A stretch of 64,000 nucleotides of DNA from a virus (taxonomy: Duplodnaviria; Caudoviricetes). The position numbers and the translations under genes are program-made. Location of the stretch: positions 1 to 64,000 of the IMG/VR virus record IMGVR_UViG_3300031088_000782; one strand, written 5' to 3'. A model generated the notes under the pieces. It was not told the origin of the DNA and did not search any database. It was given only the letters and a program-made list of their open reading frames with translations. Shown one piece after another: positions 3,326-29,779 of the stretch. Positions within the stretch are counted from its first letter, which is position 1. Each line of letters begins with the position of its first letter.

Positions 3326-5170
3326 TCAACTCTTCGCTCTCACAAAACGAATCTTTCCAGAATCCCACACCCGATCAAACCCATTTAACTCAGCAAGCTC
3401 CCTTTCAGACAAACCCTCTTCAAAAACCAGAAAAGGATCATTCTTAAACTTTGACAAACGAAAACCGAATTTATGGAAACGCTTATTCCCAATCACATAA
3501 GAATAATCAGGCGGAACAATCCCATCAATATTCCAACCAGTCTTTTCATACAAACCACCATCGCTAAAAGACAAATCAGCAAAAGTTACGAGACGTTCAA
3601 ACTCATAATTATTTTCAAAGAATTTGACAATTTTGCTGTGACCACCAACAACATGAACACAAGTAGCATAACGAGTCAAAGTATAATCACTTTTATTTTT
3701 AACGAAAGCAGCAACAGCAATAAGTTTCTTGCTCAATTTGTCAAATAAACCAAGATAAACAGAAGACCCAACAAACCCCTGAATATGGTAAGAATCCAAA
3801 AAACTTGAAGCTTCAAATTTTTCAATAACCTTCACAAAAGTATTGCGAGCAAAAACACGTTCAGAAGAAACACCTAAAACATGCTTAATATGAGATTTAA
3901 CAATATCTTGTTTATTGTCCCACTCATCCTCCCAAATCTGAAGTAAACGAACATTCTTATTCTTAGCCAATTGGAATTTATCTTTATGAAAATTTCGCCC
4001 CTTGAACTTCTCACTATGCCAATACAATCCATTGAACTCAATTCCAACATTCAAATCAGGAATGAAAACATCAATCTCTTTCCCATTAAGAATCTCACGA
4101 TCATTCTCAATAACTTCAAAACCCAAAGATTTAACAAAATTAGCCAAATCTTTTTCTTTTTTGGAAACGTTTCTGGTTCGACATTTTTTGCAACCCTCCA
4201 ATCCTTGAAGTATTCTAAAAATAGAGTAAGTAAAATATTCAAAATGTTTATTGCATTTTAAAACAGTATCACCTTGAAGACTATTTTTTAGCACAGTTTT
4301 GTCGAATCCATATCTGTTTTCACCATGAACACCTTTAACTCTTTCAATGAATTCCTCTAATGTTGTTGATCTATTTTCTTTATCACAAAGATTACAACCT
4401 GTCTTTCCCATCAATAGGCCATCAAGTGTTTGAGTGAAAAATCCATGTTCAGTAACAGAACATCCAATAGTTTGCTTTTCTCGAATCCCTTTATTCCAAT
4501 CTACTTGTGAAAAATCGAATTTTTTACTATGCACTTTAAAAGATTTTTCAATAATAACTTCTTTCGACATTTTCAAAGTTTTAGAACACTTATAGCATCC
4601 AATCATTTTATTCAAATTGGACCAAGCTTCTTGAATATATTCCACATTGTGAATATTACAAATCAAAACCACCTTAGTGTGAATTCCTTTAATCTCAGAA
4701 ACTTTTGAATAATCAAACCTATCCTCTCCGAAGATATTTTTTGATCTTTTTATAAATTCATCACGATCAATAGGTTTTTGACCATTACAATCAGTGCATC
4801 CATTAAATCCCTTCATAAAAGCCTGGGGGTTTTGAAAAAAGAAAACATCATGTTCAACACATTTAATCTTTACTTTTTCATTCATCTTAGTATAAACGGT
4901 TTCTGAAAAATCAAATTTGTCCTCACCATGAATTTTAATTGATCGTCTGATGAAATCCTCATTTGTCAACCTTTTCCCCCCGCAATCAGGGCATCCATTT
5001 TGAGATTGAAGTATTTTTCCGGGACGCATCGTAAACTCTAAATCATGCTTTTTACATACAACAGTAACAGGAGTGGTCGAATTTTTATAAATAGATTTAC
5101 TGAAATCAAGATCTGGAGACAAAGATTCTGCTCTTTCAACAAACTCTTTTTGAGTCAATTTTTTAGGCAT
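3326..5170 (-). CDS. Homing-endonuclease-like protein: 5 DUF723-like Zn repeats + PD-(D/E)xK/Vsr-like nuclease + C-terminal GNAT-like domain
   Basis: Five ~65-aa repeats (F..R...IHG..FDFS...C..H.....GC..C); EIDVFIPDLNVGIEFNGLYWH; C-terminal YHIQG..VYLGLF..LTRYA..GGHSK. RBS AGGGG before ATG 5170. Confidence 0.75.
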   Translation of the reverse strand: MPKKLTQKEFVERAESLSPDLDFSKSIYKNSTTPVTVVCKKHDLEFTMRPGKILQSQNGCPDCGGKRLTNEDFIRRSIKIHGEDKFDFSETVYTKMNEKVKIKCVEHDVFFFQNPQAFMKGFNGCTDCNGQKPIDRDEFIKRSKNIFGEDRFDYSKVSEIKGIHTKVVLICNIHNVEYIQEAWSNLNKMIGCYKCSKTLKMSKEVIIEKSFKVHSKKFDFSQVDWNKGIREKQTIGCSVTEHGFFTQTLDGLLMGKTGCNLCDKENRSTTLEEFIERVKGVHGENRYGFDKTVLKNSLQGDTVLKCNKHFEYFTYSIFRILQGLEGCKKCRTRNVSKKEKDLANFVKSLGFEVIENDREILNGKEIDVFIPDLNVGIEFNGLYWHSEKFKGRNFHKDKFQLAKNKNVRLLQIWEDEWDNKQDIVKSHIKHVLGVSSERVFARNTFVKVIEKFEASSFLDSYHIQGFVGSSVYLGLFDKLSKKLIAVAAFVKNKSDYTLTRYATCVHVVGGHSKIVKFFENNYEFERLVTFADLSFSDGGLYEKTGWNIDGIVPPDYSYVIGNKRFHKFGFRLSKFKNDPFLVFEEGLSERELAELNGFDRVWDSGKIRFVRAKS

Positions 5171-5254
5171 AATATCCCCTTTTCTTTTAATCTCTATATA
5201 AAATATCTTACCAAAAGTTGCGGAAAAATTTAAAAAATACGAATAAAAGCACAC

Positions 5255-5298
5255 AAAAATACCGTAGATCTTAGATTACTAAAACCTACGGTATTTTT
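5255..5298. terminator. Bidirectional intrinsic terminator downstream of nrdF
   Basis: AAAAATACCGTAG / CTACGGTATTTTT inverted repeat. Confidence 0.7.
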
Positions 5299-5328
5299 AT
5301 CAAAAACTACGAAATTCGTTTTTAATTG

Positions 5329-6333
5329 TCAGAAATCCCAGTCATCATCGTCCATATCCTCCGCTTTACCTACGATATACTGACTACTGGATTGGCTGAA
5401 AAAGTCGTGATTCTCATTAGATGGGTCAAGAGATGCCAAAATCTGCGGAGCAATAGTGGTTTCCTCTTTACCAAAGATTCCTTCAAACCCAAGATTGTTC
5501 AAAGCTTTGTTTGCATTGTATTTAAGGAATTTCTTAACTTCTTCAGTCAATCCCAAATCATCATAAATAGATTCGGTGTAGTGCTCTTCATTTGCGAAAA
5601 GATGATTCAAAAGTTCGATTGTGAAATCATACAATTCTTTTTGGCGTTCAGGTGTTGATTCATTGTAAGCTTTTTGGAATTTATAACCAATGTAATAACC
5701 ATGAATTGACTCGTCACGGACTATTAAGGAAATTATTGATGCTGTATTTGTCAATTTTCCTTTACTTGACCACCAAAGCGGCATGAAGAATCCTGAGTAG
5801 AACAAGAATGATTCAAGAAGGGTTGAAGCAATCTTTCGTTTCTCTGGGTCATCTCCACGGTAATAGTGTAAAACGATAGCTGCTTTCTTTTTCAGAAATT
5901 CGTCTTCTCTTGACCAACGAAACACTTCTTCAATTTCTTTACTTGATAAAAGAGTTGAGAAAATACTTGAATAAGATTTTGCGTGAACAGATTCCATAAA
6001 AGCAATGTTAGTATAGATTGCCTCTTCATGGGGGGTTCTGGCATCGGGAATGAGCGAAATAGCACCAACGCGACTTTGTATGGAATCCAAGAGAGTTAAA
6101 CCAGCAAAAATTTTTGCTGTTGAGTCTTTTTCTTGTTCAGTAAAGGTGTTCCATGAAGAGAGGTCATTACTGATCGGCACCTTAGTGTCAATCCAAAAGT
6201 TCTGCACCAAGCGTTGCCAAATTTCCAAATCTTTTTCATCTTCAATTTTGTTCCAGTTAATTGCTTCTTCAAGTTTAACATCGTCAATATTGAAATCGTC
6301 AAGTGTTGTGGGAGTTTCATTGTTGTCTGTCAT
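5329..6333 (-). CDS. nrdF: Class Ib ribonucleotide reductase beta subunit
   Basis: AINWN, LTLLD, MESVHAKSYS, LLESFLFYSGF, RDESIHG and C-terminal DDDDWDF; all metal ligands and the radical Tyr are present. Confidence 0.97.
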   Translation of the reverse strand: MTDNNETPTTLDDFNIDDVKLEEAINWNKIEDEKDLEIWQRLVQNFWIDTKVPISNDLSSWNTFTEQEKDSTAKIFAGLTLLDSIQSRVGAISLIPDARTPHEEAIYTNIAFMESVHAKSYSSIFSTLLSSKEIEEVFRWSREDEFLKKKAAIVLHYYRGDDPEKRKIASTLLESFLFYSGFFMPLWWSSKGKLTNTASIISLIVRDESIHGYYIGYKFQKAYNESTPERQKELYDFTIELLNHLFANEEHYTESIYDDLGLTEEVKKFLKYNANKALNNLGFEGIFGKEETTIAPQILASLDPSNENHDFFSQSSSQYIVGKAEDMDDDDWDF

Positions 6334-6447
6334 CAGTTCTCTTTCCTTTTTCTATTTTTCATTACTTGTTTAATATCTTAACAAATTTTGTTTTGCCGCA
6401 ATATCATTATTCGATTATTTTATCAAACTTAGCAAAATATTCTATTC

Positions 6448-8106
6448 TCAATCGTCATCATCTAAATCGAATGCGCTTCTTTCTATGCCAAGGTCTTCAC
6501 CAGAATTTATTTCATTTTTATCCGATGTTTTTGGGGTGTTGACTGTTTTGGATTTTGACGAATTTTGACTTTCTTCAATAATGTTTATAAATTCTTCTGG
6601 AAGGTCTACTTCTGGTAAGGAGAGTGAAGTATCATTTTCTTCTAAAATTATTTCATCAAGATCAAAAGCACTTTCTTCTACATCAAGGTCTTCATCATCT
6701 TCTTTTATCAATTGTTCAAGGTCTTTGCCTTTGATTTCGTCTTCATCAGGGAGGGATAGAGCTTCTTCATCTTCATTGTTTTTGTGAGAAAGAATCTGCT
6801 CTCTTTGTTTGGCTATTTCGGCCATGCTCAATTTTTTGGGTTCTTTCTTCTCATCAAGTTTTTTTGCAACATTTGCCGAAGCTACTCCGCTGGATATAGC
6901 ATTTGAACTGCTTTCAACAGCGTTTTCATTAATGTCTGGGAGAGGCTGTTCAGTTTCTTCGCTTTTATGAAGAAATTTCTTGTAGGTGATAATACCTTTT
7001 GCTGATTTATTGCCGAATTCCCATCCTTGTTTTTTCAGAAAATTTTCGATGCTGTTCTGTGTTCCATTGTTATTTCTGAATTTGACGCAAATTTCTTTCT
7101 TTTTCATCATTTCAGCAATTCTTCTGTAATCTTCGAGAATATATTTCAGAATTTTATGTCCATCTGTTTCTTGTCGATGGACTTTGATGTCATGTAATTC
7201 ATCAAAGTCTTTGTCAATTGTGTAGAAGGCTATCACCTTTCCGTTTTTGAGCACGACTCTGTAATTGGTGATTCCTTTTGCTTCGTTGCTTTTCATAAAC
7301 ATTTCGAAATCTTTTTCAGTAAGGTTGGATTGTTCGTTTGTTCGTGAAGTTGTGGTGTAGATTTCTTTTATTTTTTCGTAGTCTGAGGGGTGAAAATTTG
7401 AAAATTTTATCGAACTATTGATGATATAATCTTTTGGTAATAGTACAAATACTTGGAAAAGAGACAATATTGCAAACAGTGTGTTACAGAACAAATTGAT
7501 TGCTATTCCCATGAAAGACACAACAAGAGCTAAACCTATCAAGAGTATGATTACTGTGAAAGCTGAGTCAATTATTGTTCCTTCTTTCATAGTTGCGATT
7601 GGAAAAGATTGAACAATTGATTCTTTAATTTGGATTAATATTTCATAAATCCTTCCAGTGACAAACAGCTCTTTTACGATAACGAAAACAAAGGTTGATT
7701 GAATAGCAGCATGAGATAAGATAACTATGAAATTCATCAATGGTTTCTGCATTTGCTTTCCATAATTTGCACAGTATTCCATAATTTTATTATAAATAAA
7801 TTTAAGAATTATGGGAGTGGTGAAAAACATGAGGATGAATGTTATTGTCTCATATGCTGTTGGTTGAAAGAATGATTGGATGATCTCTGCTTCAGGGGAA
7901 CTTTTTCGTAAATAGGCAATGAGAAAGAAAAGCAGTGAGGCGGCTGTTGTAAGAATTAATGAGACTATCCAGAAGAAGGACTCTTTTCTTGTGTATTTAA
8001 TGAGTTTTCTGTTAGGGGAGTAGTCTTTTTGGGGTCTGCCTATTTTCCCTCTGTTGTCTTCTGTGACAAATAATTTCTTTTTTATATCTTGTATTTTGGT
8101 TTCCAT
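6448..8106 (-). CDS. Membrane protein with possible GNAT-like cytoplasmic domain and acidic tail
   Basis: About 4 hydrophobic segments; RVVLKNGKVIAFYTI...ENFLKKQGWEF pattern; D/E-rich C-terminus. Confidence 0.5.
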   Translation of the reverse strand: METKIQDIKKKLFVTEDNRGKIGRPQKDYSPNRKLIKYTRKESFFWIVSLILTTAASLLFFLIAYLRKSSPEAEIIQSFFQPTAYETITFILMFFTTPIILKFIYNKIMEYCANYGKQMQKPLMNFIVILSHAAIQSTFVFVIVKELFVTGRIYEILIQIKESIVQSFPIATMKEGTIIDSAFTVIILLIGLALVVSFMGIAINLFCNTLFAILSLFQVFVLLPKDYIINSSIKFSNFHPSDYEKIKEIYTTTSRTNEQSNLTEKDFEMFMKSNEAKGITNYRVVLKNGKVIAFYTIDKDFDELHDIKVHRQETDGHKILKYILEDYRRIAEMMKKKEICVKFRNNNGTQNSIENFLKKQGWEFGNKSAKGIITYKKFLHKSEETEQPLPDINENAVESSSNAISSGVASANVAKKLDEKKEPKKLSMAEIAKQREQILSHKNNEDEEALSLPDEDEIKGKDLEQLIKEDDEDLDVEESAFDLDEIILEENDTSLSLPEVDLPEEFINIIEESQNSSKSKTVNTPKTSDKNEINSGEDLGIERSAFDLDDDD

Positions 8107-8141
8107 TGAGCATCCTTAAAAAGTTCTATTGTATATATCTT

Positions 8142-8573
8142 TTATGGGCGTTTTTTGATGCCTTTTTCTAATTTTATAGCGACTTTATACATATTGTCGT
8201 TAAATTCTTTTTCTGTGTCTGTTTTATTTATCATGTAGTTCATTTCGGCATTTTTTTCAGAATTTTCTCTGTCTGTCACTCTTATAACAGATTCGGGGTA
8301 TGATAGGTTATTTCTTATATCTTCAATCATTCCGGTTAGGGGTTTTGATTCGAAAATTGTTTGCGCTTCATGATCGGTTAGTTTGATGATCATTTCATGT
8401 TTATATTCATTAACAGGGTTGGAGAAAGTCCAGCTCAATGCTGCTTCATTATCTTTCATAGGAACCAGAAATTGTGTAATTTCTCCATCCCAGTGATTGA
8501 GGACAGCTATTTCTTTTTGGCTATTCTTTTCGAATTCATCTAACCATTCGGGTTTTATAAATTTTTCATGCAT
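8142..8573 (-). CDS. Hypothetical protein
   Basis: 143-aa ORF co-oriented with neighbours. Confidence 0.65.
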   Translation of the reverse strand: MHEKFIKPEWLDEFEKNSQKEIAVLNHWDGEITQFLVPMKDNEAALSWTFSNPVNEYKHEMIIKLTDHEAQTIFESKPLTGMIEDIRNNLSYPESVIRVTDRENSEKNAEMNYMINKTDTEKEFNDNMYKVAIKLEKGIKKRP

Positions 8574-8671
8574 TTTAAACTCTTTCTTTTTTTTATGTTT
8601 TTCATTTTAATCATTTTATCATTCTTTTTTGTTAATATTTCGGTAATGTATTTTTTAATGAAGGGTTTATT

Positions 8672-9415
8672 GTGCAACTTATTATTGCTGATTGTTCTGC
8701 TATTTATTCTGGTCGAGGAGATACGTCTTTACCTCGCGGAGTGAGATCGATTATGGTGAAATCCGATGGATCTGTTTCTATTCATAATGATGTTGGAAAC
8801 AAGCCTTTGAATTATATGAAAACGGCATCTTTTTCTGAAACTTTTAACAATATTGGCGAAAAAGTGTGGACATATGATTCACGAAAGGAGTCTCTGTCAA
8901 TCACTATTCATTCCTTGTTGATGATGACTGAAATGCCTTTGATAGCTGAGGATCCTGGTCTTGAACGTGATGGAACTGAAAATCATCTGCAAGAGTGGTT
9001 GTCTCTTCATCCTGAAACTCTTGGTGCGGGTTTTTCTCTCATTTCAAGAGAATTCCCAACTGGCAAAGGTCCAGTGGATCTTCTGATGAAAGATGCAGAA
9101 GGAAATCCTGTTGCTGTGGAGGTAAAACGAGTTGCTATGCTGGGAGCTGTTGATCAGTGCAGGCGTTATCTTGATGGGTTAAAAGATCCAGAAAGTCAGC
9201 CTAATATTGAAAAATTCATTGATGAACACTCTCTTAGAGATTCAGGAATTATTGATGAAAAGTTCAGTTTACTTTCAGTTAGAGGAATGGTGGCAGCTGT
9301 GGATGTCAGACCAAAAACTTTCGATTGGGCACTCAAACATAACATTGAAACTGTAATCGTTCCTCATGACTGGAATGATCACAGCAAAAATGAAACCAAC
9401 TCTTCACCCGAATAG
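8672..9415 (+). CDS. nucS: Mismatch-specific endonuclease NucS/EndoMS
   Basis: IADCSAIYSGR, KSDGSVSIH, KPLNYM, REFPTGKGPVDLL, AVEVKR, VDQCRRY. Confidence 0.92.
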   Translation: MQLIIADCSAIYSGRGDTSLPRGVRSIMVKSDGSVSIHNDVGNKPLNYMKTASFSETFNNIGEKVWTYDSRKESLSITIHSLLMMTEMPLIAEDPGLERDGTENHLQEWLSLHPETLGAGFSLISREFPTGKGPVDLLMKDAEGNPVAVEVKRVAMLGAVDQCRRYLDGLKDPESQPNIEKFIDEHSLRDSGIIDEKFSLLSVRGMVAAVDVRPKTFDWALKHNIETVIVPHDWNDHSKNETNSSPE

Positions 9416-9525
9416 AATTTATTTGACATTAATGATTTTATTTTGAAAATTTTCTTATTATAGTTGCATAGATGATTCTTTTGTGTTATTATGTCATTAA
9501 TAATAACTTTATGAAAGGATTTATC

Positions 9526-10461
9526 ATGAGCACTATGAATACTGCAACGTTTTCAAATATTGAGGAAATCGGCTTCAGGGTCAAAGCTTCTCGACTTTCT
9601 CGTGGGCTTGGGGTTTCATCAGCCCATAAGGGTGTTATGACGCATGTTGCCTACACTCGATCAGAAGAGGGGCGCGGGTCTCTGAGTAATCTTGTTGCTA
9701 TCTGTGATGTTCTCAATCTGACAGTGGAGACAAGCTTCAAGTCAGTTTCGGGCGAGTGGGTTAAAATTCCACTTGCTGAAGCCCGAGATGCTGTTGTTTC
9801 TTATCGTGAAGCATCTGGGGTATCACCATCTGATTTAGCACGAGACATGAGTGTCCCTTATGCAAGTGTTCGTGTTTTTGAAAGTTCTGACAGGCCACAG
9901 GTTCGATCCATCAGTCGCTATGCACAGTCCCTTGGAATGGAATTTAAGTTCGCTGTTTCTGACGTCCACGGAGAATATGTCATTCCTTCGAAACGACTCA
10001 ACCAGACTGTCTTGGCAAAACTTGAAAAAGATCTTCATCAAGCATTGAATGGCTACCAAAGCTCTCATTTCGAAACAAAGCTGGGTAAAGAAATCAAGAA
10101 GATTCGAGAAAAGAAGAATATGACAAAAGCTGAAGTTTCACGACTTTCAGGTATCGGTCAGGCTTCAGTTGCTAAGGTTGAAAATTCTCGCACCACTCTG
10201 GAGACTTCACAAAAGGTTGTTGAAGCTCTCGGTAAGCAGCTTTTCGTTGTTTTTGAAGGGGACACGGTTCCAGCTTCGGAAATTCACACTGCTCTTGATA
10301 GAATTCGTTGTGAAAGAGGCATCACTCCGTCTGATTTCGCTCGACGTATCGGAACAACTTACCGCGCTGTGATGGTTTTCCCCAAAGCTCATCCGACCGT
10401 TCAGAGCATCAGTCGCTATGCACATGGGCTGGGAGTTGAGATCCGTCCTCTCATTGCCTGA
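9526..10461 (+). CDS. Multi-HTH (XRE/Cro-like x4) DNA-binding protein
   Basis: Four HTH_3-like units; units 2 and 4 share G.(S/T)PSD.AR...SISRYA..LG. Confidence 0.75.
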   Translation: MSTMNTATFSNIEEIGFRVKASRLSRGLGVSSAHKGVMTHVAYTRSEEGRGSLSNLVAICDVLNLTVETSFKSVSGEWVKIPLAEARDAVVSYREASGVSPSDLARDMSVPYASVRVFESSDRPQVRSISRYAQSLGMEFKFAVSDVHGEYVIPSKRLNQTVLAKLEKDLHQALNGYQSSHFETKLGKEIKKIREKKNMTKAEVSRLSGIGQASVAKVENSRTTLETSQKVVEALGKQLFVVFEGDTVPASEIHTALDRIRCERGITPSDFARRIGTTYRAVMVFPKAHPTVQSISRYAHGLGVEIRPLIA

Positions 10462-10488
10462 TATTCATTAATTGTTGATGAATTTTTC

Positions 10489-10535
10489 AAGAAAGATCCG
10501 ATGAAGCAAATCGTCAGCTTCATCGGATCTTTCTT
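10489..10535 (+). terminator. Intrinsic terminator
   Basis: 19-bp perfect stem AAGAAAGATCCGATGAAGC / GCTTCATCGGATCTTTCTT followed by T-rich sequence. Confidence 0.8.
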
Positions 10536-10591
10536 TTGTGATTTTTGTATGACCATAACCATTTAACAAATTTAAGGAAGGAGGATTGTGA

Positions 10592-10888
10592 ATGAGCATC
10601 AATGACATGAATGATGACTACTATTCGGGAAAAATACAGTATTGGCTTTCTCAACAACATCCGATTTTCGCTCACTGCGCACGAGGTTTTATTATATTTT
10701 CCGGGATTGCTGTTATACTTCTCGGAATTATTCTCATTCCCCTTCCCGGACCTGGTTGGCTGATTGTGTTTTTAGGGTTATCTTTGGTGGGCACCGTCTC
10801 CCGACCTGTTGATGAATTTGTAAAGAAAATCAAAAATTTCATTAAACAAAAATTCCAAAAGTTCGTACATAAAGAAAAACTTCGATAG
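10592..10888 (+). CDS. PGPGW-family small membrane protein
   Basis: Two TM segments around IPLPGPGW. Confidence 0.85.
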   Translation: MSINDMNDDYYSGKIQYWLSQQHPIFAHCARGFIIFSGIAVILLGIILIPLPGPGWLIVFLGLSLVGTVSRPVDEFVKKIKNFIKQKFQKFVHKEKLR

Positions 10889-10966
10889 AATCTTATTTTT
10901 TCAAATGTTGTTTCTTGCGATATTGAAAGTAACAATTGCTTAAATGATTTTGAAAGGATTTTCAGT

Positions 10967-11923
10967 ATGATTTCTTACACCTGTTCTTCGGAGGACATGA
11001 TCAATAACATTGAGAATTCCTTGCGTTCTGCTTTTTCGGATGTGGATAAAGGAATATTGGAGATGCGATTCATGTCAATGAGCAGAGGAACTGAAATATC
11101 CGCTAATTTTGTTACTGATTCTGACATTGATTCAAAAGAAGTAAGAACTCGAATTATAGATAAAATCAGTCTTTCAGCCATTTCAGAGTTGCGAGAAATC
11201 ATGAAAGACGAAGAGCAAGGAGTATGGCTCAGCGGACTTATCTCTTTTAATTGCTTGACAGAAGAATTCAAAATTTCATTCAATTATAACGAGAGATTCA
11301 ATGTCCTCACCGAAAATTGGGAATACAGTGAATCTGATGACGAGATTTTTCCTGACAGAGTAACATTGATCAATGATTTTGAAAAATATTCTCGAAACGA
11401 TAAAAACATTCCTGATTGGTATTTTGATCTTCTTCATGAACAACGTCAGATAAAAAATGCAATCAAGAAAGCAGTTCCAGAAGATGTTTTCAGTGAGCAA
11501 TTAGATGCTAATCCTCAAATAGAAGAGAAATTTGATTATCTTTCTGATTCAGAAGAATGGAAAATTGCATGGGGGCAGTTAGGTACTGTTTATATGAGAA
11601 CCCTATTGAAAGATAAGAGCCTTCTTGCTCTGTTTGTTGATGACAGTAAAATTCCAGAGAGAGCATCCTACATTTTTGATGAATTCGAACCTAATGTTCT
11701 TGATGAATTTTTAACATATTTCATGAATAGAACATCAACTAAACTCCGTGCTCACATGATCAACCTTGTTCAAGATTCTAATGGCTCTGAATCTTATGAT
11801 CTTGATTCAGAGGATGATTTCGATAGTGATCTTTTGGAAGAAGAATTCGAAGATGTAATCATTTCTATGATCATGTCTCAAACCAGACAACGTTTCCCCG
11901 ATTTAGATGAAGTGATTTTTTGA
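10967..11923 (+). CDS. YezG/DUF600-like polymorphic-toxin immunity domain with acidic C-terminal extension
   Basis: ELREIMKDEEQGVWLSG...FKISFNYN...DFEKYSRNDKNIPDWY pattern. Confidence 0.55.
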   Translation: MISYTCSSEDMINNIENSLRSAFSDVDKGILEMRFMSMSRGTEISANFVTDSDIDSKEVRTRIIDKISLSAISELREIMKDEEQGVWLSGLISFNCLTEEFKISFNYNERFNVLTENWEYSESDDEIFPDRVTLINDFEKYSRNDKNIPDWYFDLLHEQRQIKNAIKKAVPEDVFSEQLDANPQIEEKFDYLSDSEEWKIAWGQLGTVYMRTLLKDKSLLALFVDDSKIPERASYIFDEFEPNVLDEFLTYFMNRTSTKLRAHMINLVQDSNGSESYDLDSEDDFDSDLLEEEFEDVIISMIMSQTRQRFPDLDEVIF

Positions 11924-18817: not shown

Positions 18818-20764
18818 ATGTTTGATGCTGACATTGATCTGTTCGATGATGTTGATCAGTCTTCGTCAAACCGAAAATTCTTGCAGAAGACTCTTGGTGA
18901 CAATGCCCAATACCTGAAATTGAAGAATAAATCTAAAACTCCCGATGGCTCTTTTGCAAAGGGGCGCAGGAACAGATTAAAAAACATTCCAAAAACAGGT
19001 AATTATGGCATTATTCCTCATAAGAAATTGTTTATTCTTGATTTTGATTGCCATAATGATGGTTTTTCTACTATTGATGAACAGATAGATTTCTTTAGTG
19101 AGTTTTTTGAAGTTAACTTACGTAAGAGTTTTGCTGTTGTCACACCTACTGGCGGTATCCATGTTTATCTGATGTTCCCGGAGGATATTTCTGAAACTTC
19201 AAAAAATGATTTTCCCAAGGCTTCTCTACGTGGTTATTCAAAAGCTTTTTCTGAAATTGTTGGTAGAGAAATAGTACTGGACGCTGACATTCGCAGTGGT
19301 TTAGTGAATGGTTATGTAGTTGGAGTTGAGAGCCTTTCTTCTCGTGTTAATGCTATTCATGAAAAATATTGGATTGCGGATCATACTGTGGGTTTTTCTT
19401 CTGAGGGATTTGACATTCTTTCTGTTCCACAGGAATCAATGGACAAGTTTAAGAGAGTCGTAGAATTCCGAAATAGCACCGAAAAATCTCTGAATGATAA
19501 GTTGGGAGAGATTGATGGTGAAAACCCGTTAAAGGCTATTTTTGAGTCTCTTGATAGTGCTTCAGGGGAAAAGACAAACATCAAGCCGCCAACTGAAATT
19601 ATTTATCGTTTGAAAAAATCAATCAAAACAAAAAATATAGTTTCTTATCATGCTAAAAGAGCCTTCGTCAAATCGGCTTTGCATTGCTGCTATGATGATT
19701 ACGCTATTGCTATTGCTTGCATTGAGATGGGAATTGATAAAGATTCATATAATGATAAATCTATCGGGTTCCGTTCTCTTATTACTGACATCAAAAGATT
19801 TACACCAGAGAAAAGATATCATGGATTTTACTGTTATCAGGGGCGTCAGAACCTCAGAATAGCGAAGAAACAAGAGTTCAAAGAACAGTATTCTGGCGTT
19901 GAATTTAATGTAGATGAATTCAAGCAGAAGATGAAACAAAAAATTTCACAACGTTCCAATGCTGGTGCTTCATCTTTTCGCGTTCTTAATCCGCGTGTTA
20001 TTGACATTGGAAAAGTATCTTCGGCTATTCTTATGGAAAAGAAAAAAGACAATCCTCCGCAACAGTATTTTGATGCTATGGCAATAGTCGATTATTTCAT
20101 TCAACCTTTGTCTAATGTCGGAACTTCTCGAATTCTTTTAGCTAAGACCGCTATATGTGAAAGGCTAGCTATTTCTCCGTCTCGCACTACTCAAGCTTTG
20201 CGATTACTGCGAGAAAATAAGGTCATTCGAATTGAGGAAAAACAAAAGAGTGGCATGGCTCCCACGTATTCTGTTTCTGAATCTTTCACTCAATTCTATT
20301 TGACGAAGGCTTTGCGTTTGGCTTGGGGAAGATTGAACAAAGGAAAGCCAAGAGAAGAGAGTGACTCCATCTATTTTGATAGATTGTCTGGCGTTTTTCG
20401 CAAGGTCTTTACTGATGAGGCTGTTGAGACTGTTTCTCCTGTTGATGATGTATTGAGAAAAATTTCCTTGTCAGTTCCAGCTGTTTCTTTTAAGTTCTAT
20501 GCTGGTGGAGCAGCAGTATCTTATTTAAAGTCTGAGGCTGAGAGGTACGATTTTTCTCCGGTTGTTCTTGATGACATTGTTGTTGATGAAAATACTGGTG
20601 AAATTGTTGAGGATCTTGATTTCAATGGTGAATTTTCTGTTGAAAGAATGTTGAATGATTCTGAATATTTAATAACTAATGAAAATAATTTAATTACACA
20701 AGAAAATAATGCTGTAGATAATATAGAGGGGCAGAATAATCATTGTTTGATAGATAGCAGTTAA
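18818..20764 (+). CDS. Bifunctional primase-polymerase (Prim-pol/AEP) with C-terminal wHTH; candidate replication initiator
   Basis: GNYGI...FILDFDCH, TPTGGIHVY, DIRS...GYVVG; C-terminal AICERLAISPSRTTQALRLL. Confidence 0.75.
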   Translation: MFDADIDLFDDVDQSSSNRKFLQKTLGDNAQYLKLKNKSKTPDGSFAKGRRNRLKNIPKTGNYGIIPHKKLFILDFDCHNDGFSTIDEQIDFFSEFFEVNLRKSFAVVTPTGGIHVYLMFPEDISETSKNDFPKASLRGYSKAFSEIVGREIVLDADIRSGLVNGYVVGVESLSSRVNAIHEKYWIADHTVGFSSEGFDILSVPQESMDKFKRVVEFRNSTEKSLNDKLGEIDGENPLKAIFESLDSASGEKTNIKPPTEIIYRLKKSIKTKNIVSYHAKRAFVKSALHCCYDDYAIAIACIEMGIDKDSYNDKSIGFRSLITDIKRFTPEKRYHGFYCYQGRQNLRIAKKQEFKEQYSGVEFNVDEFKQKMKQKISQRSNAGASSFRVLNPRVIDIGKVSSAILMEKKKDNPPQQYFDAMAIVDYFIQPLSNVGTSRILLAKTAICERLAISPSRTTQALRLLRENKVIRIEEKQKSGMAPTYSVSESFTQFYLTKALRLAWGRLNKGKPREESDSIYFDRLSGVFRKVFTDEAVETVSPVDDVLRKISLSVPAVSFKFYAGGAAVSYLKSEAERYDFSPVVLDDIVVDENTGEIVEDLDFNGEFSVERMLNDSEYLITNENNLITQENNAVDNIEGQNNHCLIDSS

Positions 20765-20781
20765 TTATCACTTATTTTGAC

Positions 20782-20810: not shown

Positions 20811-20848
20811 GTAGTTATTGAACATTTACACGATGATTGGAGAAAATA

Positions 20849-23389: not shown

Positions 23390-23449
23390 AAGATTTGTAA
23401 AATTTTTTTTAAAATGAAAAAAACAATAGGTGAATGGAAGGATTATATT

Positions 23450-23680
23450 ATGAATGATTCAATGAGTGTTATCAAGAAAGCTCTTTCTGAGAAGAGTGCA
23501 GTATCTTTCAATTATGAAAAAGCGGATGGGGATAGTTCTTTTCGAAATATTGTTCCTGAAGATGTGATTATTGCTTCTGACTCTAATCCGCTTGTTGTGG
23601 GGGTTGATCAAGATGTGCAGGGCTATCGTAGGTTTAATCTTTCACGAATGACTGATGTGAAGCTGTCTGTTGGTGAATGA
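23450..23680 (+). CDS. Stand-alone WYL-like domain protein
   Basis: ALSEKSAVSFNY...SFRNIVP...YRRFNLSRM. Confidence 0.65.
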   Translation: MNDSMSVIKKALSEKSAVSFNYEKADGDSSFRNIVPEDVIIASDSNPLVVGVDQDVQGYRRFNLSRMTDVKLSVGE

Positions 23681-23716
23681 TTGACAAACTTTTGTTTATG
23701 GTTTAAGTAGTAAGAT

Positions 23717-23765
23717 AATAAGGTTATCAGTGAGTTTCTTAATGTCTCTTACTGATAACCTTATT
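23717..23765 (+). terminator. Hairpin/terminator
   Basis: AATAAGGTTATCAGT / ACTGATAACCTTATT followed by a T-rich tract. Confidence 0.7.
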
Positions 23766-23891
23766 GTTTTTTTTGTAAAGATATTGAAAATGGTTTTTCA
23801 AAAGAATTTTGGTGATGATTTTTTGTTAAAATCTAAATGAAGTAGATAAATAGTTTTTCATATAGAGAAATTTTGAAAGGTAGTAAAAATT

Positions 23892-24986
23892 ATGACAGTT
23901 ATTGAGCCTTTGGTTCCTAAGTTTGACAATATTGAGGTAAATAAAGTTGATTTGCCTTACAGAAACGAGTCTTATCTTCGTTTTTCTTATTCAGATCCTA
24001 TGTTGGAGGGATATGAAGTTACAGTTATTGCTGATTCTGTTCCAGTAGGCAGTGAATTTAAGAATGGTGATGAAGAGGGGGAGCGTTTATTAACAATTTC
24101 AGCAAGATTCCCACGTTGCATCCTTTCGGAAGTAAACACTCACAGGGTTTTTTCAAGAAATTCAGCTTCTTCTCGTGCTCGTTCAGTTAAAGCCACTATT
24201 GGTGACATTATGCGTAAGCCTTATATTCCTTTGTTCACTAAAAACAAAAAAGGTATGAGCGGAGAATTTTTAACTGCTGCTGAAAGAGAATTAGCTGTCA
24301 AGGCTTGGCTTTTGGGGCGAGACTCGGCTGTTGTTTCTGAACTTCGGCTTTTATTGGGTGATTTACTTACTCCAAGCGGAACTATCACTGAAATTGCATC
24401 AAATTATGCATCTCACATTGACCGCTATTACAAGGAAGTTTATGAAGCTGAGATTATGCCTGTTGAAGCTATTTCTGTTCATAAACAAAATGCTAATCGA
24501 GTAATTGAGCCTTATATGTGGCATGAAGCTATTGTCACTTCGTCTTATTGGGAAAATTTTGTTGAATTGCGAACAGACTTGGAAGCTGCTCAACCTGAAA
24601 TTGTTGCTTTGTGTCGTTTGATTGAAAAAGCTTTGGAAGTTTCTCGGCCTTCGCAAACTTGGTTGCACCTTCCATTTATCGAAGATTCCGAAAAACCTGA
24701 ATCCTTTGATAATTTTGCGAATATTCGTGATTTGTTGCTTCTTTCTGCAACTGAGTCAGCACAGGTTTCTTATCGTGACAAATCAAGAGCAGATAAGTCG
24801 ACTGCGACTACTCGCTTAGGTGAGCGGTTACTGAAGATGCGCCATTTGAGTCCTTTTGAGCACGTTGCTTTCTCTTCGGATGCCTACCACAATAATTCTG
24901 AGGAGATCTTACCGCGAGGAAATGTCTTGCGGAGTAATTTGGATGATAACTGGGTTCAGCTTCGTCCAATTTTGACAGCTATGTGA
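23892..24986 (+). CDS. thyX: Flavin-dependent thymidylate synthase (ThyX/Thy1), phage type
   Basis: FPRCILSEVNTHRVFSRNSASSRA, HKQNANRVIEP, HLSPFEH. Confidence 0.85.
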   Translation: MTVIEPLVPKFDNIEVNKVDLPYRNESYLRFSYSDPMLEGYEVTVIADSVPVGSEFKNGDEEGERLLTISARFPRCILSEVNTHRVFSRNSASSRARSVKATIGDIMRKPYIPLFTKNKKGMSGEFLTAAERELAVKAWLLGRDSAVVSELRLLLGDLLTPSGTITEIASNYASHIDRYYKEVYEAEIMPVEAISVHKQNANRVIEPYMWHEAIVTSSYWENFVELRTDLEAAQPEIVALCRLIEKALEVSRPSQTWLHLPFIEDSEKPESFDNFANIRDLLLLSATESAQVSYRDKSRADKSTATTRLGERLLKMRHLSPFEHVAFSSDAYHNNSEEILPRGNVLRSNLDDNWVQLRPILTAM

Positions 24987-25001
24987 AAACTGTCAAACAT
25001 G

Positions 25002-25033
25002 GAGGGGTAGAGAAAAATCATTCTCTACCCCTC
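25002..25033 (+). terminator. Intrinsic terminator
   Basis: GAGGGGTAGAGAA / TTCTCTACCCCTC. Confidence 0.7.
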
Positions 25034-25091
25034 TTTCGTGGATATTTTTCTATGAATACCTATTAATATTAATGCAAAGGTTTGATAAAGA

Positions 25092-25718
25092 ATGAGTGAA
25101 TTGCTTGAAAAGTCCCCTGTGAGACGTTTTTGGAGTAAAGACGTGATTCTGTTCTCTACTATGCTCCTATCGGCTCTATCATGCCTTGTAGCATCTCTTG
25201 TGTTGTCGATTGATGCTGTCAAGCTAGCTTCTGACCCCACCGCGAATCTCTCCTGTGATATCAACGCAATAGTAAGCTGTGGAACTGTTGCCTTATCAGA
25301 TCAAGCTCAGATTTTCGGATTTCCTAATTCTTTTCTGGGACTTATCTGTGAACCTATTGTCATTATGATTGCTGTTGCTGGCTTATCAGGCGTAAAGTTT
25401 CCAAGATGGATGCTCACAGCTGCTCAAAGTGTTTATTTCATCGGTTTCGTCTTTGCATTGTGGCTGTTCTATCAATCTGCTTTTGTTATTGAAGCTTTCT
25501 GTCCTTGGTGCTTATTAGTGACTGTTGGGACAACTTTAACCTTCTTCACACTGTTGAGATATAACATTATTCATGACAGAATTTTCCTTCCTAAAAGATT
25601 GTCAAATTTTGCTAAAACTGCTGTAAGCTTGAGGATAGATAGCGGGTTGGCTGTTATTGTTTTGATGGTTTTTGCTTTCGTTATATTCTACAATTATGGA
25701 TTCTCAATGTTTGGCTAG
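25092..25718 (+). CDS. Vitamin K epoxide reductase (VKOR) family membrane protein
   Basis: SCDINAIVSCGTV..S.QA.IFGFPN and CPWC redox motif; several TM segments. Confidence 0.9.
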   Translation: MSELLEKSPVRRFWSKDVILFSTMLLSALSCLVASLVLSIDAVKLASDPTANLSCDINAIVSCGTVALSDQAQIFGFPNSFLGLICEPIVIMIAVAGLSGVKFPRWMLTAAQSVYFIGFVFALWLFYQSAFVIEAFCPWCLLVTVGTTLTFFTLLRYNIIHDRIFLPKRLSNFAKTAVSLRIDSGLAVIVLMVFAFVIFYNYGFSMFG

Positions 25719-25807
25719 AATTTTAAAATATGTTTTTATCAAACTGTTTTTGATCTGTTTTAGAAAAGTTCATAACTAAACCTAACGAACGATAAGGTAG
25801 GATGAAC

Positions 25808-26398
25808 ATGGCGAAAACAAAGTTTCACGTAAACCCTGAAACGGGTGAGTCCGGAGAATGCAATGCATCTGTTCGTGCTTGCATTTACGGTAATAGTAAG
25901 GGCGACTATCATTATGCTACCAAAGAAGAAGCTGAGAAAGCTGGACAGAATATTCTTGCTTCAAAATATGGGACTTTTAGTAAAAAGAAAAAATCTAACA
26001 AAACTTTAAAAGCTGTTTCATCTTCTGCCGTTTCTTCGGAAAAGGTTTCTTCAAATAAATCGAAGGCAGCTAAATTTCGATCTCAAATCGAAGACATGAA
26101 TCAAGAAGAAATTCGCCAATTCGCTGACATGTCTCAATCTAATTATAATGCTATTCATAAAATTGCTGAAGATAAAATTAATGAGGATAATGCTGTTTTG
26201 TCAAGACTCGGAGAGTTGTCCGAAAAGAATGGTGCACTTATTGCCGAAAACCGTGAGATAATTATGCGAGATTACAGTATAAATCATAAATCAACTTCTG
26301 AAATTGTCAAAGGATTGGCTAACAGCAAAAACTTTTCTCCATCTAACTCTATCCTTGATCATATAAGAGATGAATATGTTAAAAATTGTTTCAAATGA
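25808..26398 (+). CDS. Protein with the same N-terminal H-C-C-H domain as the ART at 22-976
   Basis: FHVNPETGESGECNASVRACIYG...HYATKEEA. Confidence 0.8.
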   Translation: MAKTKFHVNPETGESGECNASVRACIYGNSKGDYHYATKEEAEKAGQNILASKYGTFSKKKKSNKTLKAVSSSAVSSEKVSSNKSKAAKFRSQIEDMNQEEIRQFADMSQSNYNAIHKIAEDKINEDNAVLSRLGELSEKNGALIAENREIIMRDYSINHKSTSEIVKGLANSKNFSPSNSILDHIRDEYVKNCFK

Positions 26399-26537
26399 TT
26401 CAAATGTTCGATTAAGTTGATATTCTTTTCATGCCATTAAGTTCAAGTGCTGAAGCACATGTTTTCACACTGTTTTCAGGACAAATAAGCTTCTTATTTT
26501 GAACTTAATGGTCTTTAATTTTTGATTGGAGTTTTCT

Positions 26538-26819
26538 ATGACAGGTTCAAGTTTGAATGATCTTATTGATGCTATTCGTTCTCGTTCAGCTCTTATTAAT
26601 GAAGGACTTGATGACAACAGAGCAGATTTGGGAGATCTTTTTATCAAATCAATTCGAAAAACAATGAAGGAAATTCGTCATGGAGCAAATTCTGATGATT
26701 TTTCGGAATTGGTTGTTGTCAATCTTATTATAATGGGATCGAACGAAGGTTATTCTTCCGAAGAGATGAAAGATTTTGTAATGAACCTTAAATCAGATGA
26801 TGAAGATCATCTTTTATAG
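26538..26819 (+). CDS. Hypothetical protein
   Basis: GGAG RBS before ATG 26538. Confidence 0.65.
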   Translation: MTGSSLNDLIDAIRSRSALINEGLDDNRADLGDLFIKSIRKTMKEIRHGANSDDFSELVVVNLIIMGSNEGYSSEEMKDFVMNLKSDDEDHLL

Positions 26820-26926
26820 CAATGAAAGTATGATATTTTTATGTGATTAAACAACTTTGTAAAATTTTACATAAATTTAGGACATAGTGCAAAAGTTTAA
26901 AATATACAGGCAAGAAAGGTTTCACA

Positions 26927-27523
26927 GTGTTCTCATCGACTTGGATTAACACTCACGGCTCTCAACATGAGGTCAATGAAGCGATACTGTGGGCTGATGT
27001 CGAATCATCTGGAACTACCCCTGAAGTTGACACACTTTTGGAACTTGGAGCCGTTATTTCTGATATGTCAGGGAACAGAATAAGCTCAACATGGGAGACA
27101 CTGTTTGAAATACCTGATTTGTCAAGAATTATAGCAAACTCCAGTAATGATGTTCAAAGATTACATGATAATTCAGGTTTATGGCAGGACTTGTGGAGCA
27201 AAGAGACAAAAACATATGCAGAAGCTGATTCTGATTTTTCTGACTTTATATTATCTTCTGTTCCTGAGAATACCTTGCTTTATTTCGGTGGAAATTCAAT
27301 TACTTTAGATAGGCTTTTTATTCGAATGCATATGCCTAAAACTTATTCTCTTATTTCGTATCGCTCTATTGATGTGACTTCCCTCTCTATGACGTTACAA
27401 TCAAATACTTCAATCCCTGGATTTAATAAAGGAAAAGATCATAGAGGATTGAAAGATGCTTTAGATTCATTAGAGGAATATAATTATTATTTAAATTGTT
27501 TGAAAAAGATTAATAAAAATTAG
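26927..27523 (+). CDS. orn: Oligoribonuclease (DEDDh exonuclease)
   Basis: LWADVESSG, LLELGAVISD, GNSITLDRLF, YRSIDVTSL, HRGLKD. Confidence 0.85.
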   Translation: MFSSTWINTHGSQHEVNEAILWADVESSGTTPEVDTLLELGAVISDMSGNRISSTWETLFEIPDLSRIIANSSNDVQRLHDNSGLWQDLWSKETKTYAEADSDFSDFILSSVPENTLLYFGGNSITLDRLFIRMHMPKTYSLISYRSIDVTSLSMTLQSNTSIPGFNKGKDHRGLKDALDSLEEYNYYLNCLKKINKN

Positions 27524-27590
27524 TGAATAAAGTTGATAAGATTAAATAACGGTTAGAAAAATCGGTTTCATTGAAGGAGAAATTAGTTAA

Positions 27591-27857
27591 ATGAGTGAAG
27601 TAACAGTATATAGCAAACCTAATTGCGGAAATTGTGATAAGACATATACCCTTTTGGGGAACCTTGATGTTGATTATAATAGTGTCGACATTTCAAAAGA
27701 TAAAGAGGCTTTGAAGAAAATCAAGGCTATGGGCTTCAGAGAAGCACCAGTTGTCGTTGTTGGTAAAGATTCATGGGGTGGATTCAACGAAGATAAGATT
27801 CGTGAACATTTTGATCCTAATCACAGCAATAATGATGATGACACATGGGATTTCTAA
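27591..27857 (+). CDS. nrdH: NrdH-redoxin with C-terminal DDDTWDF extension
   Basis: VTVYSKPNCGNC, GFREAPVV, WGGF. Confidence 0.9.
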   Translation: MSEVTVYSKPNCGNCDKTYTLLGNLDVDYNSVDISKDKEALKKIKAMGFREAPVVVVGKDSWGGFNEDKIREHFDPNHSNNDDDTWDF

Positions 27858-27874
27858 GCTGTTGAGAAAAATCG

Positions 27875-27920
27875 AAAGTGAGAGACATGAGACTGTTTTG
27901 GTGCTCATGTCTCTCACTTT
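27875..27920 (+). terminator. Intrinsic terminator
   Basis: AAAGTGAGAGACATGAG / CTCATGTCTCTCACTTT plus T tract. Confidence 0.8.
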
Positions 27921-28027
27921 TTTGTTAGAATATATGATATATAATGTTGTTCTCATAAAACAAATGAGGTATAGATTAAAGACTTAGATTTAAAAGACAG
28001 AGTAGATGTTGAGGGGTAGCTTTAGTT

Positions 28028-29779
28028 ATGAAAAAAATTTACGCCAGAAAATGCGAAGTAAAAACAATTTCTAAGGATTTAGGAAGTGTTTTTATCGAAG
28101 AAAACCACACTCAAAAAGCAAGCAAAGCTTCTGCAAGTGTTTATATTGGAATCTTTTTTCAAGACAACCTTTTAGGCGTATGTATGTTTAGCAATCCCCG
28201 AACGACAAAAAAGAAAAAAGAATATTCAAGAGAACTACTTCGTTTATGCTTCAAAAAAGATACACAAGTTATTGGTGGGGCATCTAAATTGATTAAATAT
28301 TATATAAAAAATTATAACCCTGTAGATTTTTTTACATATCAGGATACAACTGGAGAGAATTCTGATGTATATGAAAGATCAGGAATGAAAATGGTAAAAG
28401 ACGGAATTAAAACAAAGAAACAATACATGGTTGCTCCTGGAAAAAACATGTCAACAGCAAATCGAAAAGAAGCTTTAAGTATGGCTTATGCTGTTAAATA
28501 TGGCCCAGACAGAATTCTTGGAACAAAAATAGGTGAAGTATTCGAAGAAAATGGAAAAAGAAAGTCCAATAGGAATATTTTCATAGAAGAATTAGGTTGG
28601 CATATAGAAGAGACAACAGGCGATTCTATATATGAGTGGACAAACCCAAATATATCTTTTTATGTTTATAAGATAACATCCAAATTAGATAATGGTTATT
28701 ATATTGGAAGAAGAAAAATAAACATAAAAAATGCAACCATACAGGAATGTATAAATGACAAGTATATGGGAAGCGGAGGTGTTAAATTTAAAAACTGGAT
28801 AAACAATATAGGAAAAGAAAATCTCGAAAAAGAAATTATGTGGATTGTAAATACAAAAAAAGAAGCAATCGCAAAAGAAGAAAAAGAAATAGGAGATTTG
28901 TATAAAACAGACGTGAATTGCAAAAATTCTCATAAAGGAGGGCTAGGCAAAAACGCTTCCAATTGGTCTGATTTATTTACAACAGGAAATTGTAGCGTTC
29001 ACGGTGAAACAAAATTTTTTGCATCTTATTGTTGCGCCTGCAGAAATCAAAAAACAGTCACTATAAAGATGTGTGACATTCATGGCGAAACAAAACACCA
29101 AGGAGGATCTTGTTCAAAATGCTCTTCTGAAAAAACTTTTCATATAAAAAAATGTATTATTCATGGGGATACAATGTTTGCAGGAAATGAATGTAGAAAG
29201 TGCTCGATTGATAAATCTTGGAGCATAATGTTTTGTGACATTCATGGGGAAACAAAACACCAATCAGGAAAATGCAAAAAATGTTCTATTGGAAAGAATA
29301 TAAATATTAAATTTTGTGACATTCATGGGGAGACTACATTCTATGGTGAATCATGTAGAAAATGCCAGGTGGATAAAAGTCTTAATGATAAAATATGTGC
29401 TATTCATGGAAAGACTAAGCATAGAGGCAATCAATGCTGCAAATGTGCATCAAAAGAAAAAGACGCAATTAAATTTTGCAAAATTCATGGTGAAACAAAA
29501 TTTCAATATAGCAAATGTATTTTATGCATAAAAGACAAAAGAGATTCATTAAAAGAATGTCCTACTCATGGGTTAGTTAAGCACAGGGGTGAAAATTGTT
29601 ATACTTGTACTATAGAAAAAGCAAACGCAATTAAATTTTGTGACATTCACGGTGAAACAAAATTTAGAGGAAATAATTGTTGTAAATGTTCTTCTGAAAA
29701 GGCCGCTCACAAAAGATTCCATGTAAAATTAAACACGAAGAAAAAAGATTGTAGGTTTTGTTTAAATTATGAAAAATGA
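28028..29779 (+). CDS. GNAT-like domain + GIY-YIG (Seg-like) endonuclease + 9 Zn-ribbon repeats
   Basis: FYVYKIT...YYIGRR...YMGSG; N-terminus aligns with the C-terminal domain of 3326-5170; 3' end overlaps the dnaG start. Confidence 0.8.
   Translation: MKKIYARKCEVKTISKDLGSVFIEENHTQKASKASASVYIGIFFQDNLLGVCMFSNPRTTKKKKEYSRELLRLCFKKDTQVIGGASKLIKYYIKNYNPVDFFTYQDTTGENSDVYERSGMKMVKDGIKTKKQYMVAPGKNMSTANRKEALSMAYAVKYGPDRILGTKIGEVFEENGKRKSNRNIFIEELGWHIEETTGDSIYEWTNPNISFYVYKITSKLDNGYYIGRRKINIKNATIQECINDKYMGSGGVKFKNWINNIGKENLEKEIMWIVNTKKEAIAKEEKEIGDLYKTDVNCKNSHKGGLGKNASNWSDLFTTGNCSVHGETKFFASYCCACRNQKTVTIKMCDIHGETKHQGGSCSKCSSEKTFHIKKCIIHGDTMFAGNECRKCSIDKSWSIMFCDIHGETKHQSGKCKKCSIGKNINIKFCDIHGETTFYGESCRKCQVDKSLNDKICAIHGKTKHRGNQCCKCASKEKDAIKFCKIHGETKFQYSKCILCIKDKRDSLKECPTHGLVKHRGENCYTCTIEKANAIKFCDIHGETKFRGNNCCKCSSEKAAHKRFHVKLNTKKKDCRFCLNYEK
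28991..29719 (+). repeat. Nine tandem 81-bp (27-aa) CxxH-x9-CxxC coding repeats
   Basis: First Cys codons at 28991 and 29639 are exactly 8 x 81 nt apart; consensus IKFCDIHGETK(F/H)xGxxCxKCxxxK. Confidence 0.9.

Follow-up and report, generated by a model that had tools for sequence, protein, structure and literature searches.

Two candidate homing endonuclease genes of an uncultured huge phage join the same Mom-like GNAT domain to unrelated nucleases

Homing endonucleases of the Hef type have been known in bacteriophages since 2005, and their genes occur in several copies within single genomes. Site-specific cleavage and homing have been shown for one member of the type only, Hef of phage U5, which cleaves nrdB (PMC2988022), and the Hef-type enzymes have been placed in the EDxHD (Vsr-like) nuclease family (PMC3239194). 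Another group of free-standing phage endonucleases, to which SegE and the other Seg proteins of phage T4 belong, has the GIY-YIG nuclease domain that is also found in I-TevI. Mom of phage Mu is a member of the GNAT fold and a Gly-tRNA-dependent N6-adenine modifier, whose chemistry and structure were published in 2026 (PMC13219725). The fusion of nucleases with Mom domains, together with the concept of restriction plus protective momylation, has already been published for jumbo phages (Iyer et al. 2021, PMC7824862). Here we describe two genes, called gene A and gene B, in a stretch of DNA that comprises the first 64 kb of the 309,534-bp virus record IMGVR_UViG_3300031088_000782 from IMG/VR; this whole stretch of 64,000 nucleotides is referred to as the window. 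Gene A, a Hef-type gene beside the ribonucleotide reductase (RNR) gene nrdF, and gene B, which carries a GIY-YIG nuclease and lies in front of the primase gene dnaG, share a Mom-like domain at opposite ends of their proteins, and both genes are missing from the corresponding sites of some relatives. The coordinates of all features are collected in Table 1.

The domain common to the two proteins was first noticed in a note made from the letters of the window and a list of its open reading frames (the original prediction), which had stated that the C-terminus of gene A aligns with the N-terminus of gene B. The alignment is recovered by BLASTP, in which residues 437-564 of gene A and residues 2-147 of gene B are 28% identical over 148 columns (E 4e-12). 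The shared domain is ~150-200 aa long, it adjoins the nuclease in both proteins, and no third copy was found in the window by tblastn. AlphaFold2 models of gene B residues 1-321 and of gene A residues 325-614 have predicted local distance difference test (pLDDT) scores of 94.5 and 95.8 and predicted template modelling (pTM) scores of 0.87 and 0.90, respectively. When 350,542 PDB chains were searched with Foldseek, both models matched the phage Mu Mom crystal structure (8bv8) best and ordinary GNAT acetyltransferases next. The E value of 8bv8 is 2.8e-7 for gene B, compared with 9.7e-5 for the next entry, and 2.6e-7 for gene A, compared with 1.5e-6. Comparison with VIA gave a Z-score to Mom of 13.6 for gene B, where Mom ranks first, and of 13.0 for gene A, with 141 residues aligned. 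The GNAT fold of the shared domain is certain as judged from these models, and the pTM scores of the two-domain models suggest that the domain is packed in a fixed way on the nuclease. The resemblance to Mom appears to include a helical insertion between the last two strands. In Mom this helix-turn-helix (HTH)-like insertion comprises residues 175-209 between β6 and β7 and is essential (PMC13219725); helices 152-164 and 181-188 of gene B and helices 243-253 and 265-271 of the gene A model are found in its place. The VIA alignments extend to Mom residue 222, and the correspondence of the insertions is one of topological place.

The specific link of the shared domain to Mom rests mainly on sequence. 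Against the Pfam family Mom (PF25680), whose curated cut-off is 27.1 bits, gene B reaches 28.0 bits with its N-terminal 321 aa, 28.7 bits in a scan of the genome and 26.5 bits with the whole protein, and four of the ten Mom-domain copies of this phage pass the cut-off. Gene B also matches phrog_1384, "Mom-like DNA modification protein" (E 1.8e-10), and the family profile aligns with Mu Mom in hhalign over ~120 columns (E 6e-4). Gene A has no match to Pfam Mom at E <= 0.01; it is tied to Mom by its direct alignment with gene B and by its matches to phrog_559 (E 1e-113) and phrog_3339 (E 1e-94). The shared domain belongs, with high probability, to the Mom branch of the GNAT transferases, in which it is a genuine though remote member.

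The pocket of Mom is formed by H58, Y59, R111, S124, D149, R151 and Y159, with W48 as a dimer contact (PMC13219725). R111, an essential residue (R101 in the study concerned), is conserved in Mom homologues and not across GNATs, and a part in substrate recognition has been proposed for it (10.1101/861617). These positions were mapped in 244 domain sequences, 152 of the N-terminal type (N-type) and 92 of the C-terminal type (C-type). The mapping follows hhalign alignments of the family profiles; a three-sequence MAFFT alignment with Mu Mom is misleading around S124 and D149. The equivalents of H58, R111 and Y159 are present in 243, 242 and 241 of the 244 sequences, respectively, the arginine in A and B among them. 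For S124 the counts of equivalents are 148/152 (N-type) and 61/92 (C-type), and for D149 they are 134/152 and 71/92, respectively. Gene A and gene B each hold the equivalents of H58, R111, S124, D149 and Y159; in gene B the first four of these are H27, R72, S86 and D106. The family also keeps the GNAT pyrophosphate loop, [R/Q]xxGGA followed by S/T-K, at a place where Mu Mom has RNSES, and because Mom lacks this loop the acyl donor of the family cannot be inferred from Mom. The proposal in the original prediction of a GNAT fold and a relationship to Mom for the shared domain is thus supported by the AlphaFold models with their Foldseek top match 8bv8, by an essentially invariant R111 and by a retained pyrophosphate loop.

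Gene A is an ordinary Hef-type homing endonuclease gene, and the family to which it belongs is large and already published. It has the same architecture as the Hef-like enzymes and is a clear homologue of them (U5 Hef, NCTC12673 Hef85, F-LimIII/VII/VIII/X of LIMEstone and those of PA5oct), and with Hef85 of Campylobacter phage NCTC12673 it shares 33% identity along 365 aa (E 6e-54). Relatives of gene A are present in 897 GenBank phage records, in 92 of which they span >=80% of it; no GenBank phage protein is more than 34% identical to gene A. The open reading frame (ORF) reaches a GTG at 5254, and homologues begin at the ATG at 5170. The five zinc modules were located by regular expression at residues 39-63, 104-128, 171-195, 237-262 and 306-330, and this region matches Pfam DUF723 (E 4.6e-9) and DUF4379. 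The nuclease that follows them is recognized by both profile and fold: the family profile of gene A matches I-Bth0305I (PDB 3r3p), the EDxHD prototype, with E 4.2e-9, and VIA comparison of model residues 10-111 returned Z-scores of 13.0 for 3hrl and 11.7 for 3r3p, the latter over 96 of 98 residues. The E..D..H..D signature is present as the motifs EKDL, EIDVF, YWHSE and IWEDEW. The order of five zinc modules, a PD-(D/E)xK nuclease and a GNAT-like domain, as read in the original prediction, therefore stands with one refinement, that the nuclease is of the Vsr/EDxHD type, a divergent branch of the PD-(D/E)xK superfamily; it is absent from gene B. Unlike gene A, I-Bth0305I is encoded in an intron, has NUMOD and HTH DNA-binding parts and lacks a Mom-like domain (PMC3239194). 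Gene A differs from the other Hef-like proteins in its five zinc modules and in its origin from an uncultured huge phage. It adjoins the gene for the RNR small subunit, which is the gene cleaved by U5 Hef, and nrdF is likely to be its target. The Hef-type family is also multi-copy per genome, as it is in this phage.

Gene B has only the Mom-like domain in common with the Hef-like family. Its central domain gives a weak match to SegE_GIY-YIG in gene B alone (E 1.8e-3), and the assignment is carried by the family: SegE_GIY-YIG is matched by 12/58 members (best 1.3e-7) and PF01541 by 3/58 (best 2.7e-9). The sole PDB sequence match of the gene B family profile is I-TevI (1ln0), and it is weak (E 0.075). 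The catalytic Tyr, Glu and Asn of GIY-YIG nucleases are near-invariant in the family alignment (Y212/Y214, Y224/Y225, E284 and N300), and the family consensus shows no conservation of the arginine that follows YIG. The nine zinc fingers begin at residues 322 to 538 with an exact spacing of 27 aa, and 139 proteins of the gene B family have 4-14 such units. The exact period and the family-level GIY-YIG matches agree with the description of gene B in the original prediction as a GNAT-like domain, a GIY-YIG nuclease and nine zinc units; nrdF (E 2.9e-89) and dnaG (E 1.3e-97) are the neighbours of the two genes that it had named. The stop of gene B overlaps the start of dnaG by 11 nt. Like T4 SegE, the other Seg proteins and I-TevI, gene B has a GIY-YIG domain, and it is a free-standing insertion beside a replication gene; Seg and I-TevI differ from it in having NUMOD/HTH or single zinc-finger DNA-binding parts and no GNAT domain. 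The architecture of gene B is absent from 50,697 GenBank phages, none of which covers >35% of the gene, and a literature search found no mention of a Mom-GIY-YIG fusion, so that this architecture seems to be undescribed. The first 330 aa of gene B are matched by at least 234 metagenomic protein clusters (E <= 1e-10), which cover 92-100% of this region among the best matches listed. Many of these clusters lie on contigs of 300-830 kb, and all are unnamed or labelled "hypothetical protein".

Gene A and gene B look like mobile insertions and show the classic pattern of free-standing homing endonuclease genes. The suggestion to this effect in the original prediction was drawn from their places beside conserved genes, and it is corroborated by empty alleles in relatives. 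After nrdF there is no A-like gene in the closest relative (G001; nrdF 70% identical), nor is there one 3' of nrdF in relative G003. In a more distant relative (G004) an A-like gene is situated directly 3' of nrdF (42% identity, E 6e-146). The nrdF of G003 (L098:6029-7849, minus strand) is a single frame of 607 aa in which an insert of ~240 aa separates the two RNR halves. This insert looks like an intein, and thus like another mobile element targeting nrdF, and has no Pfam intein match at E <= 1e-3. For gene B, related dnaG loci were found with an alignment as the query; a query with the single dnaG protein found none. In four related huge phages with dnaG 40-55% identical either glutaredoxin and dnaG or an exonuclease gene and dnaG are adjacent, without gene B; the glutaredoxin gene is the one that directly abuts dnaG in L013, L011 and L020. 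The gap before dnaG is <500 bp in L013, L011, L020 and L012 and holds no gene B-matching ORF of >=50 aa, as compared with an insertion of 1.9 kb in the window.

The same domain is found in further copies outside the window. The 309.5-kb record contains ten Mom-domain nuclease genes, three of the gene B type and seven of the Hef type. A stand-alone Mom-like domain does not occur in this genome, the domain being always fused to a site-specific nuclease, in which it differs from Mu Mom. Other copies that were checked lie after the gene for the RNR large subunit, after a helicase gene, near a ligase gene and between two topoisomerase II subunit genes, the last of these places being occupied by a tandem B-type pair with 6 and 11 fingers (record 217246-221472, plus strand). 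In a tree rooted on Mu Mom the N-type domains form a clade of their own with 149 tips, which indicates that the Mom-GIY-YIG fusion is old. A recent swap of the domain between A and B within the genome was considered as an origin of the shared domain and is ruled out by this clade and by the low identity of B to the C-type copies, only 27-34%. A 323-aa Hef-like gene without a Mom-like domain (record 87920-88891, plus strand; L099:1921-2892; phrog_3339, E 1.3e-34) is located directly upstream of the full-length copy at 88972-91239 and is probably a truncated or decayed copy.

Table 1. Gene A, gene B, their domains and the adjoining conserved genes (window positions)
Feature	Positions	Strand	Remarks
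Gene A, Hef-type free-standing homing endonuclease	3326..5170	-	intact ORF, 614 aa
Gene A, C-terminal Mom-like GNAT domain	3329..3865	-	AlphaFold2 pLDDT 95.8; Foldseek top match 8bv8
Gene A, Vsr-like (EDxHD) nuclease domain	3866..4171	-	profile and fold match
Gene A, five zinc modules, presumed DNA-reading part	4181..5056	-	C..H..GC..C, ~65-aa period
nrdF, ribonucleotide reductase small subunit	5329..6333	-	directly upstream of gene A; Pfam Ribonuc_red_sm E 2.9e-89
Glutaredoxin gene	27591..27857	+	Pfam Glutaredoxin E 1.9e-13; abuts dnaG in relatives (empty site for gene B)
Gene B, Mom-like, GIY-YIG and zinc-finger-array nuclease	28028..29779	+	intact ORF, 583 aa
Gene B, N-terminal Mom-like GNAT domain	28028..28642	+	AlphaFold2 pLDDT 94.5; Foldseek top match 8bv8
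Gene B, GIY-YIG nuclease domain, SegE/I-TevI-like	28649..28942	+	family-level Pfam matches
Gene B, nine tandem zinc fingers	28991..29719	+	CxxHG-x8-CxxC, exact 27-aa period
dnaG primase	29769..31655	+	directly downstream of gene B; phrog_6444 E 1.3e-97

A mechanism that would account for both genes combines homing with a self-protective mark. The arrays of zinc modules would recognise a long DNA target within or beside a conserved gene, nrdF in the case of A and the glutaredoxin-dnaG junction in the case of B. During co-infection the nuclease, Vsr-like in A and GIY-YIG in B, would cut genomes without the gene, and recombinational repair would copy the homing gene into the cut genome. We regard it as very probable that A and B are free-standing homing endonuclease genes that act by array-guided cutting and copying of this kind. 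The Mom-like domain may in addition act on the element's own recognition site, where an adenine would be flipped out and receive an acyl or aminoacyl group. The carrier genome would thereby become immune to its own nuclease, and the domain would resemble the methylase part of the single-chain type IIG enzymes. The donor could be Gly-tRNA, as in Mu Mom, or acyl-CoA (CoA, coenzyme A), which is considered because the family keeps the [R/Q]xxGGA loop in place of the RNSES of Mom. Type IIG/IIL enzymes such as MmeI and Eco57I also have a nuclease, a base modifier and a specificity part in one polypeptide; this is a functional analogy only, since they are not homologous to A or B, use S-adenosylmethionine methyltransferases and short sites, and belong to defence systems and not to homing elements. 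That the Mom-like domain is an active, self-protective DNA-modifying transferase is proposed tentatively, at somewhat less than an even chance. The explanation as a whole, with homing, homology to Mom and a self-protective mark, is the best one available to us, and the chance that all of it is right falls just short of even. It is doubtful that two nuclease folds independently recruited a site-directed adenine acyl or aminoacyl transferase in order to cut others and mark self, perhaps with acyl-CoA as the donor and a mark so far undescribed.

An active enzyme is favoured because hardly any variation is seen in the pocket residues, the Mom-specific arginine included, because two unrelated nucleases whose kinds are capable of homing without the domain (I-Bth0305I and I-TevI) both carry it, and because the domain packs tightly on the nuclease in both models. 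Several observations weigh against this interpretation. The Mom-like domains of the family are very distant in sequence from Mu Mom (14-18% identity). The family profiles do not reach the Mu Mom sequence in PDB at E <= 1, so that it is Pfam, PHROG, hhalign and the fold that tie the domain to Mom. The VIA Z-scores to Mom tie with those of ordinary GNATs, which are found at Z 11-14. Neither Y59 nor the dimer residue W48 of Mom is conserved in the family. The R151A mutant of Mu Mom has no detectable activity (PMC13219725), and in the hhalign register the position of R151 is Thr in B, Ser in A and Thr/Ser in the N-type; arginine is present there in 0/10 copies of this phage and is kept in 37/92 C-type sequences. 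Finally, Hef is said to cut the DNA of its own phage as well, which argues against full self-protection unless the substrate was unmodified. The loss of R151, Y59 and W48 is also a point in favour of the principal rival, according to which the domain is no longer a transferase and has become a structural part of the endonuclease, which by dimerisation, DNA clamping or base-flipping aids recognition or double-strand cutting. Such a role would accommodate the common dimerisation of GNATs, the two cuts that homing enzymes of both the GIY-YIG and the Vsr-like kind have to make, the tight packing of the domain against the nuclease (pTM as above) and the loss of the S124 or D149 equivalent in a minority of the family. 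On the other hand, 244 diverse sequences all but agree in the pocket H, R and Y and retain the GGA(S/T)K loop, and conservation of this degree would hardly be expected of a domain that neither binds a ligand nor acts as a catalyst; a purely structural or base-flipping role is considered rather unlikely.

The other explanations differ from the homing and self-marking scheme in what the domain or the nuclease is directed against. If the proteins were restriction-like weapons, the nuclease would attack host or superinfecting-phage DNA and momylation would protect the whole phage genome, as predicted for the Mom-restriction endonuclease fusions of jumbo phages (Iyer et al. 2021, PMC7824862). Ten paralogues in one genome would fit such a role, but presence and absence at fixed intergenic sites beside conserved genes is the signature of homing, and 5-14 zinc modules imply long and rare sites that are ill-suited to genome-wide restriction or protection, which makes this reading improbable. 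The homology to Mom would likewise allow a general anti-restriction modification of the kind seen in Mu, to which the nuclease and the zinc modules would be incidental, and the original prediction had named anti-restriction next to self-protection as a possible purpose. This part of it does not hold up well: tethering to long, site-specific zinc arrays would confine modification to few sites, and the domain is always nuclease-fused in this genome, without a stand-alone copy, so that a general role of this kind appears extremely improbable. A substrate other than DNA, such as aminoacyl-tRNA or a protein (compare TacT/AtaT and the phage GNATs that acetylate RNA polymerase), with modulation of the host during homing, would be compatible with the generic character of a GNAT fold with an intact CoA-type loop and with VIA, which puts RimI-like protein acetyltransferases level with Mom. 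Against it stand the retention of the Mom-specific R111 and of H58, the assignment of the domain by Pfam and PHROG to Mom and not to protein acetyltransferases, and the constant fusion to DNA-binding and DNA-cutting domains, which points to DNA; we consider such a substrate very improbable.

What is new here is the empty-site evidence for both genes, the residue-level comparison with the Mom structure paper of 2026 and the retention of the CoA-type loop. The family of the shared domain comprises 9,583 clusters at 50% identity (E <= 1e-3), and thousands of phage homing endonucleases thus carry a Mom-like domain. Its occurrence with two unrelated nucleases and its near-invariant pocket make a strong case that the domain does something that homing elements need. 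If this is the deposition of a site-specific adenine mark, the proteins would represent a new class of self-immunising mobile elements and natural combinations of a reader array, a DNA writer and a cutter, and the arrays of 27-aa fingers would become candidates for a modular DNA-recognition code.

Further genes were noted in the window. An Eco57I/N6_Mtase-type N6-adenine DNA methyltransferase of 498 aa is encoded at window 1798-3294 (minus strand), 32 bp downstream of gene A; it matches Pfam Eco57I with E 1.2e-27, and a 31%-identical homologue occurs near nrdF in relative G003. A 552-aa ORF beside nrdF (6448-8106, minus strand) and a 648-aa ORF beside an rIIA-like gene (18818-20764, plus strand) are without Pfam or PHROG match.

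We read the record as an uncultured huge phage. Beyond the window, at positions 145134-178814 of the record (G000), 66 tRNA genes lie clustered; many are duplicates, and one is a suppressor tRNA with the anticodon tta (reads TAA). The record also encodes a transfer-messenger RNA (tmRNA) with the tag ANANKNAYALAA, rIIA/rIIB-like genes, a primase gene and a phage tail lysozyme. No 16S rRNA gene was found in the record. A blastn search ('distant') with a 4.6-kb piece of the window gave no DNA-level match to GenBank phages, and there is therefore no close cultured relative. The proteins of the window are placed on a 681,645-bp contig in the protein database, and mis-trimming may be the reason why IMG/VR labels a 309-kb piece of this contig 'provirus'. 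A small bacterial genome, which was suggested by TraG/TcpC-like genes and by the 681-kb parent contig, was rejected because there is no 16S gene and because of the 66-tRNA cluster with the tmRNA, the rIIA/rIIB-like genes and the tail lysozyme. The genes that had raised this alternative encode a TraG/VirD4-type coupling protein and TcpC-like conjugation proteins at window 34346-38780 (plus strand), an unusual cargo for a phage.

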